DNA from: a virus
Taxonomy: Duplodnaviria; Heunggongvirae; Uroviricota; Caudoviricetes
Virus record (IMG/VR): IMGVR_UViG_2547132127_000011
DNA length: 16,794 nt
Strand: one strand, 5' to 3'
Shown: one piece after another, positions 7,011-8,010 of the stretch
Numbering within the stretch: the first letter of the stretch is position 1
Layout: each line of letters begins with the position of its first letter
The notes under the pieces: model-generated
What the model saw: the letters and a program-made list of their open reading frames with translations, nothing else
What the model was told of the DNA's origin: nothing
Database searches by the model: none
Program-made: the position numbers and the translations under genes

Positions 7011-7224
7011 GAGCGGATCGGCATATTTTACCCGAACTGAATCATGATTATTCTCGCCCGTGGTGCCAGGACGCTGGGGCCACTTTCCCGCCTGTTAATG
7101 TGCTCGCCAATATTCATTACCAGGCGGGAAAACGATCGGTGCGATTACTGATTTCCTTATGAAAAACGGTTGAGTGTTTGCCGCGTCCTGGAGTTCCTTA
7201 CTTAACCCCAGGACTTTTTTTATG

Positions 7225-7233
7225 CAGAGAATA
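7225..7233. repeat. IS1 target-site duplication, left copy (CAGAGAATA)
   Basis: Identical 9-mer at 8002..8010 immediately flanking the other IS1 end. Confidence 0.9.
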
Positions 7234-7248
7234 GGTAATGACTCCAAC

Positions 7249-7752
7249 TTACTGATAGTGTTTTATGTTCAGATAATGCCCGATGACCTTGTCATGCAGC
7301 TCCACCGATTTTGAGAACGACAGTGACTTCCGTCCCAGCCTTGCCAGATGTTGTCTCAGATTCAGATTATGTCGCTCAATGCGCTGAGTGTAACGCTTGC
7401 TGATAACGTGCAGCTTTCCCTTCAGGCGTGATTCATACAGCGGCCAGCCATCCGTCATCCATACCACGACCTCAAAGGCCGACAGCAGGCTCAGAAGACG
7501 CTCCAGTGTGGCCAGAGTGCGTTCACCGAAGACGTGCGCCACAACCGTCCTCCGTATCCTGTCATACGCGTAAAACAGCCAGCGCTGACGTGATTTAGCA
7601 CCGACGTAGCCCCAATGTTCGTCCATTTCAGCGCAGACAATCACATCACTGCCCGGTTGTATGCGCGAGGTTACCGACTGCGGCCTGAGTTTTTTAAGTG
7701 ACGTAAAACCGTGTTGAGGCCAACGCCCATAATGCGTGCACTGGCGCGACAT
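7249..7752 (-). CDS. insB: IS1 InsB (transposase C-terminal part, expressed as InsAB' by frameshift)
   Basis: 167-aa ORF matching IS1 InsB (…[25 protein letters not shown]…). Confidence 0.9.
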
Positions 7753-7946
7753 CCGACGCCATTCATGGCCATATCAATGATTTTCTGGTGCGTACCGGGC
7801 TGAGAGGCGGTGTAAGTGAACTGTAGTTGCCATGTTTTACGGCAATGAGAGCAGAGATAGCGCTGATGTCCGGCAGTGCTTTTGCCGTTACGCACCACGC
7901 CTTCAGTAGCGGAGCAGGAAGGACATCTGATGGAAATGGAAGCCAC
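7671..7946 (-). CDS. insA: IS1 InsA (transposition repressor / N-terminal transposase part)
   Basis: 91-aa [46 protein letters not shown]... matching IS1 InsA. Confidence 0.9.
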
Positions 7947-8001
7947 GCAAGCACCTTAAAATCACCATCATACACTAAATCAGTAAGTTGGCAGCATTAC
8001 C

Positions 8002-8010
8002 CAGAGAATA
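8002..8010. repeat. IS1 target-site duplication, right copy (CAGAGAATA)
   Basis: Identical to 7225..7233. Confidence 0.9.

Follow-up and report, generated by a model that had tools for sequence, protein, structure and literature searches.

The organisation of capsid-forming PICIs (cf-PICIs) has been described, with EcCIEDL933 from Escherichia coli O157:H7 EDL933 as the prototype (bioRxiv 10.1101/2022.09.08.507074). Transfer of EcCIEDL933 is abolished by mutating each gene of the packaging module, except for the hypothetical gene 1792, where transfer is severely affected; replication, on the other hand, is unaffected in the packaging mutants (bioRxiv 10.1101/2022.09.08.507074). A cryo-EM model of the EcCIEDL933 capsid is available (PDB 9GYI), in which the major capsid protein is cleaved N-terminally and the mature chain starts at residue 93. 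Among Shigella genomes, that of S. flexneri 5b strain 8401 (CP000266.1) contains 6.37% IS elements by chromosome content, with IS1 the predominant type (PMC1550401).

The locus of interest is a cf-PICI whose major capsid gene is interrupted by a copy of IS1. We consider it highly probable (about 0.92) that this island was first broken by a premature stop codon in the capsid gene (W276*) and a deletion in terS, and that IS1 was inserted later, as a selectively neutral step in the decay of the element.

By its gene content and flanks, the stretch of DNA analysed here (16,794 nucleotides; hereafter the window) is a defective cf-PICI in S. flexneri, located at the roxA-phoQ site (Table 1). Its left arm is of the PICI type, with integrase, alpA and D5-type primase genes. 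These are followed by a full head and packaging set as judged by Pfam—capsid, protease, portal, connectors, HNH, TerS and TerL—in which capsid and terS are disrupted. The exact TerL protein is widespread in E. coli islands, and no tail-family Pfam match was obtained among the large ORFs scanned in the window. Given the three lesions described below, both induction by a helper phage and transfer in the island's own capsids, fitted with hijacked tails, are predicted to have been lost.

Table 1. Features of the island and of the IS1 insertion (window coordinates).
Feature	Position	Strand	Basis
Tyrosine integrase	1..1230	+	Pfam Arm-DNA-bind_3, Phage_integrase
alpA-type regulator, 62 aa	1605..1793	+	PF05930 Phage_AlpA, via the same gene in identical locus L014 (11605-11793)
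Primase/replication protein, D5_N type, 582 aa	3767..5515	+	Pfam D5_N, DUF5906, Pox_D5
Capsid leader, 7-bp stem GTCCTGG / CCAGGAC then T7	7185..7221	+	Sequence, RNA fold, conservation
Native capsid ATG, cut off from gene body	7222..7224	+	Annotated homologs, 9GYI sequence
Target-site duplication, left copy CAGAGAATA = capsid codons 2-4	7225..7233	+	Sequence; single copy in empty-site alleles
IS1	7234..8001	-	100% identity to annotated IS1; IRR 7234-7256, IRL 7979-8001
insB, DDE domain	7249..7752	-	Pfam DDE_Tnp_IS1 (PF03400), E = 1e-73
insA	7671..7946	-	Pfam Zn_ribbon_InsA + HTH_Tnp_IS1 (PF03811, PF12759)
A6C (AAAAAAC) programmed -1 frameshift motif	7689..7695	-	Sequence; IS1 position 307 in transposase orientation
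Target-site duplication, right copy CAGAGAATA	8002..8010	+	Sequence
Capsid gene body, codons 5-385 + stop, HK97-fold major capsid protein	8011..9156	+	Pfam PF05065, PDB 9GYI
Premature stop W276* (TGG -> TGA, changed base 8826)	8824..8826	+	Alignment to intact islands
Terminator-like hairpin, capsid-protease gap	9166..9187	+	GAAGGGGCT-AAAA-AGCCCCTTT + T-rich tail
Prohead protease, intact	9196..9768	+	Pfam Peptidase_S78
Portal protein, intact	9770..10981	+	Pfam Phage_portal
Head closure/completion protein	10978..11316	+	Pfam Phage_HCP; 112-aa start as in L014
Head-tail connector protein	11313..11609	+	PF05135 for identical gene in L002
HNH endonuclease	11609..12049	+	Pfam HNH
91-bp deletion junction, 7-bp microhomology CCCCGCC	12261..12267	+	Alignment to intact relatives
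terS, 5'-truncated	12286..12597	+	Pfam Terminase_4; alignment to 118-aa TerS
Large terminase, intact	12581..14242	+	Pfam TerL_ATPase, TerL_nuclease
attR core, 21-bp direct repeat CGGTGTAGTTAATGGTGTAGT	15233..15253	+	Repeat of attL

The left arm is mosaic (window 1800–5600 compared with loci L005, L029 and L004), with a D5-type primase here and a RepA/AAA_25 helicase plus SSB in some relatives; the latter have packaging modules near-identical to that of the window. Within the same arm, positions 1851–2597 (+) hold a 248-aa ORF with no Pfam match. Some assemblies call this ORF; in others the same DNA is annotated with short ORFs on the minus strand (109 aa and 59 aa), including one at 1843–2172 (-).

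In loci that include both flanks, the island lies between roxA and phoQ. The attL copy of the 21-bp repeat is found ~47 bp upstream of int, outside the window (L021 1905–1925), and the distance from att to att is ~14.5 kb without IS1, in line with the ~15 kb of a cf-PICI. A query running from the island end into phoQ was at least 80% covered in 52 complete E. coli genomes, strain 2014C-3097 among them. As the first E. coli homolog lies in tqsA rather than beside phoQ, a chromosomal rearrangement was considered; it was rejected on the evidence of the both-flank loci, which show the roxA-phoQ arrangement together with the 21-bp att repeats. Other relatives also lie in tqsA (L001 and, by their flanking genes, L004–L008 and L011–L013). 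The occurrence of both roxA-phoQ and tqsA sites indicates that this island family uses several attachment sites.

The interrupting element is a complete IS1 of 768 bp, lying between two 9-bp repeats, and its transposase is encoded on the minus strand. The two ends form imperfect inverted repeats (GGTAATGACTCCAACTTACTGAT and GGTAATGCTGCCAACTTACTGAT) in which 20 of 23 positions agree. By sequence, the element retains both ends and its ORFs intact, and it shows full-length, 100% identity to copies annotated as 'IS1 family transposase' on S. flexneri plasmids (at least 5000 plasmid records match). Transposase transcription runs antisense to the capsid gene: a promoter scan revealed a promoter-like site on the minus strand inside the right end of IS1 (7994 to 7967), which we take to be the expected place of the transposase promoter in IRL.

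The flanking repeat CAGAGAATA is exactly 9 bp long, with the tenth base upstream being G in one case and C in the other; the chance of a 9-bp match abutting both IS1 ends is 4^-9 (~4e-6). Codon 2 of the capsid gene, which lies within the repeat, is CCG in all nine of the uninterrupted E. coli homologs, and CAG in both duplication copies and in the Shigella empty sites described below, a pattern that fits duplication of a single pre-existing 9-mer.

Several lines of evidence identify ATG 7222 as the native capsid start. Firstly, the annotated 385-aa capsid CDS of intact E. coli islands starts at the homologous ATG (RefSeq; two loci examined, L001 and L029). Secondly, the EcCIEDL933 capsid sequence in PDB 9GYI opens MPRIIELRQQ, that is, with the same start codon. 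Thirdly, an in-frame TGA lies 16 codons upstream, and an AGGA motif 8 nt before the ATG. The alternative start GTG 7177, in frame and directly after the TGA, was rejected: it is without a Shine-Dalgarno sequence, and both the annotation of the examined loci and 9GYI use the ATG. In the window, this ATG opens an ORF of 30 codons that runs into IS1 and stops at 7312–7314; the capsid frame through IS1 contains 12 stops, the last at 7984.

These results bear out much of an earlier note made from the sequence of the window. The note had named the element as IS1 with boundaries 7234–8001, on which the coordinates, inverted repeats and 100% identity agree, and had reported a perfect 9-bp duplication over capsid codons 2–4, which is indeed present at 7225–7233 and 8002–8010. 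Its proposal that the start codon and ribosome-binding site are severed from the capsid gene likewise stands, the ATG now heading the 30-codon ORF. The note had also raised the case of intact homologs that start elsewhere; those in L001, L029 and 9GYI share the ATG.

Joining positions 7222–7233 to 8011–9156 gives a frame of 385 codons that matches Pfam Phage_capsid (PF05065) with E = 1e-59 (202.6 bits against a cut-off of 24.2; residues 100–378), and the 385-residue chain of PDB 9GYI with E = 1.7e-252 (379/385 identical, ~98%), which makes it an ortholog of the EcCIEDL933 major capsid protein. The profile match is preceded by an N-terminal delta/scaffolding domain, in keeping with the cleavage of the EcCIEDL933 protein ahead of residue 93. 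As a query, the joined capsid gene had matches in 733 E. coli genomes, 358 of them with a coverage of 80% or more; all 30 of the matches listed have an annotated 'phage major capsid protein' feature. The earlier note regarded the joined frame as uninterrupted, which proved incorrect: codon 276 (8824–8826) is TGA. Seven intact E. coli islands with this sequence were checked, and codon 276 is TGG in all of them; an exact 61-mer with TGA at this codon was found in none of 349 matching E. coli genomes.

Two further observations concern the capsid gene in other assemblies. The beginnings of contigs L025–L027 were considered as candidates for other IS insertions in the capsid gene, and rejected: their first bases are plain capsid sequence, as at ordinary contig ends. 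One E. coli island (L007; GCA_040406505.1, 6082–6813) has an independent internal deletion of 758 bp, equivalent to window 8731–9488, that fuses the capsid and protease genes. This fusion indicates that cf-PICI head genes decay in other lineages too.

The second lesion, a deletion of 91 bp, has cost terS its ATG, its first codons and its ribosome-binding site, along with ~70 bp of the spacer that separates it from HNH. The missing 91 bp are present in every intact relative (the segment corresponds to L005 9591–9681). In all eight of the E. coli genome matches listed, the match is in two pieces spanning 198–199 bp, as is expected for an undeleted terS region. The first canonical start left in terS is a GTG at native codon 16, and terS function has probably been lost. 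HK97-type phages have their cos site between HNH and terS; the 91-bp deletion might hence also affect the cos site of the island.

The earlier note suggested alignment with an uninterrupted homologous island as a check on the insertion. Such an alignment reveals the empty site in six assemblies (ERR832464, ERR048272, ERR127043, SRR21549236, GCA_900457185.1 and SRR24202491). In each of these, the island occupies the same place in the chromosome, IS1 is absent and CAGAGAATA is present once; the site reads ATG-CAGAGAATA-ATCGAA (in longer form, ATG-CAGAGAATA-ATCGAATT). Two of the IS1-free loci, L019 (ERR127043) and L021, align colinearly to the window without its IS1 along 16,017 bp, gap-free and with three mismatches. 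Over the stretch covered, five of the IS1-free alleles differ from the window by 2–14 SNPs, and the sixth (L020) by 28. The same occupied junction as in the window is found in CP000266.1, GCA_003573225.1, ERR832459, ERR048335, SRR1811686 and SRR14018825. Over the compared stretches (L010 and L014), GCA_026013175.1 is 100% identical to the window, which differs from CP000266.1 by four SNPs. Beyond these assemblies, none of 5426 complete E. coli genomes matched a 661-bp query of the left junction at a coverage of 80% or more, and an exact scan for the left junction gave no matches among species-representative genomes, a set that does not include the source genome.

The exact empty site in near-identical assemblies proves that the insertion is real, recent and polymorphic. 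The earlier note had taken the event to be recent from its clean duplications, and this is upheld by polymorphism among islands 2–4 SNPs apart and by the 100% identity of the IS1 to other copies. In one IS1-free assembly (L019, ERR127043, 17968–18638), phoP is called as two ORFs of 30 aa and 192 aa, where the others have one of 223 aa; either a disruption of phoP or an error of assembly could account for this.

Comparison of the two sets of alleles provides the order of the lesions. Every one of the six IS1-free alleles has the W276* TGA, and each of the three that extend to terS (L019, L020 and L021) also has the 91-bp deletion. At position 1454, all IS1-carrying alleles that cover it have G and all IS1-free alleles have A. 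The derived 6647C occurs in the IS1-carrying alleles and in a single IS1-free allele (L016), while the other IS1-free alleles keep the ancestral 6647T. Together, the patterns at 1454 and 6647 place the IS1-carrying alleles inside the diversity of the W276* carriers. Over ~14 assemblies, as distinct from a whole-genome phylogeny, parsimony puts W276* and the terS deletion ahead of IS1, which arrived last and in one sublineage. In CP000266.1 (L009), four SNPs cluster in protease/portal (window 9689–10440); L020, the divergent IS1-free allele, has three of them as well, and at least one is ancestral. Such a cluster may reflect recombination over a short tract, and does not fit a strictly clonal tree.

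The order of events bears directly on an alternative that was implicit in the earlier note, namely that IS1 was the primary lesion: the capsid gene would have been functional until IS1 disrupted it, and the head operon functional until polarity silenced it. IS1 does separate the start codon and ribosome-binding site from the capsid gene, and the downstream head genes are otherwise intact ORFs. However, W276* is shared by the full set of six IS1-free alleles, those three that can be scored for terS all have its deletion, and the IS1-carrying alleles are nested among W276* carriers. IS1 therefore inactivated no working capsid gene, and we regard this alternative as very unlikely. Considered alongside the EcCIEDL933 mutant data, the earlier lesions indicate that the island was unable to make capsids, and probably unable to package DNA, before IS1 arrived.

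A second alternative reverses the direction of the polymorphism: the IS1-free alleles would be products of precise excision from an IS1-carrying ancestor, such that the insertion is old and its order with respect to W276* is not fixed. The pattern of presence and absence cannot by itself polarise the event. Yet precise excision of IS1 occurs at very low frequency, far more rarely than insertion, and several independent precise excisions would be needed. Moreover, diversity is higher among the IS1-free alleles, which reach 28 SNPs per 16 kb and still have the ancestral 6647T, while the IS1-carrying alleles are nearly identical to one another. We judge excision to be slightly less probable still than an IS1-first history.

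The favoured history, in which IS1 came last, can be set out as a series of steps. Initially, the island lost function through W276* (TGG to TGA) in the major capsid gene and through the microhomology-mediated 91-bp deletion, which strips terS of its translation start. Subsequently, in one sublineage, IS1 transposed into capsid codons 2–4, duplicating CAGAGAATA and severing the ATG and Shine-Dalgarno sequence from the body of the gene. Transcription arriving from upstream would then end at IS1, probably silencing the protease, portal and other head genes. Since capsid and terS were already dead, the insertion was presumably selectively neutral: an event in a decaying element, typical of the expansion of IS1 in Shigella genomes.

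Several possible signals lie around the insertion. Upstream of it, the Shine-Dalgarno AGGA (7210–7213) lies within the 3' arm of the leader stem. This stem is kept in intact E. coli islands, with a fold z-score of only -1.5. The leader hairpin resembles a terminator or a hairpin that sequesters the Shine-Dalgarno sequence, and could be a regulatory (antitermination) point. The hairpin in the capsid-protease gap might set the stoichiometry of capsid to portal. Downstream, the promoter scan found no plus-strand promoter-like site leaving IS1 or within 8011–9800. An IS1 end may, depending on context, provide a -35 box. A hybrid outward promoter was accordingly considered for the -35-like TTGGCA at 7988–7993, and rejected for want of a -10 at usable spacing. 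IS1 is classically strongly polar in either orientation; because of this, and of the lack of a promoter-like site in the downstream scan, it is plausible that the insertion lowers transcription of protease, portal and the later head genes. Polarity is largely moot, as the island was already defective.

Two readings would give this transcriptional effect a biological role. In the first, the island is a domesticated remnant, with protease, portal, HNH and TerL kept for a benefit to the host such as interference with helper-type phages; the effect of IS1 would then be to modulate this role, through the loss of transcription from the capsid promoter. The basis for domestication is the intactness of these ORFs, which recent lesions explain equally well, and we put its probability as low as that of precise excision. 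The second, that the insertion was selected, either for silencing residual head-gene expression or for driving downstream genes from an IS1-borne promoter, is the least credible of all, as the -35-like TTGGCA in the IS1 end facing the capsid gene is set against the absence of a plus-strand promoter-like site at or after the right end of IS1 in the scan, the polymorphism of the insertion among near-identical strains, and the richness of Shigella genomes in IS1.

Under the neutral, IS1-last history, the insertion is an ordinary case of IS1-mediated pseudogenisation in a published Shigella genome, and a clean one in that the empty site survives in sister strains. It also indicates that the roxA-phoQ cf-PICI of this S. 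flexneri lineage, being triply defective, should be left out when surveys count mobilisable satellites. The presence or absence of IS1, W276* and the terS deletion could serve as lineage markers.

Comparison with known systems is possible at three levels. As an insertion sequence, the element shares with the IS1 family (i) a length of ~768 bp, (ii) imperfect terminal inverted repeats of ~23 bp starting GGTAATG, (iii) insA and insB with the A6C frameshift site, and (iv) a 9-bp target duplication; no differences were seen from the family, so that the window holds a standard copy for which the insertion site alone is specific. The island of E. coli 2014C-3097 (NZ_CP027449.1) occupies the same roxA-phoQ site with the same packaging module, and is ~97.6% identical in the capsid region; it differs in that its capsid (385 aa) and TerS (118 aa) are intact, in having no IS1, and in carrying another replication module. 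With EcCIEDL933, finally, the island shares a gene order (int, alpA, replication module, major capsid, protease, portal, head closure, connector, HNH, terS, terL), the lack of tail genes, and a capsid protein that is ~98% identical over 385 aa. The Shigella copy differs from the prototype in its location at roxA-phoQ and its D5-type primase, where some relatives have a RepA-type helicase, and in being defective by IS1 in codons 2–4, W276* and the 5' deletion of terS.
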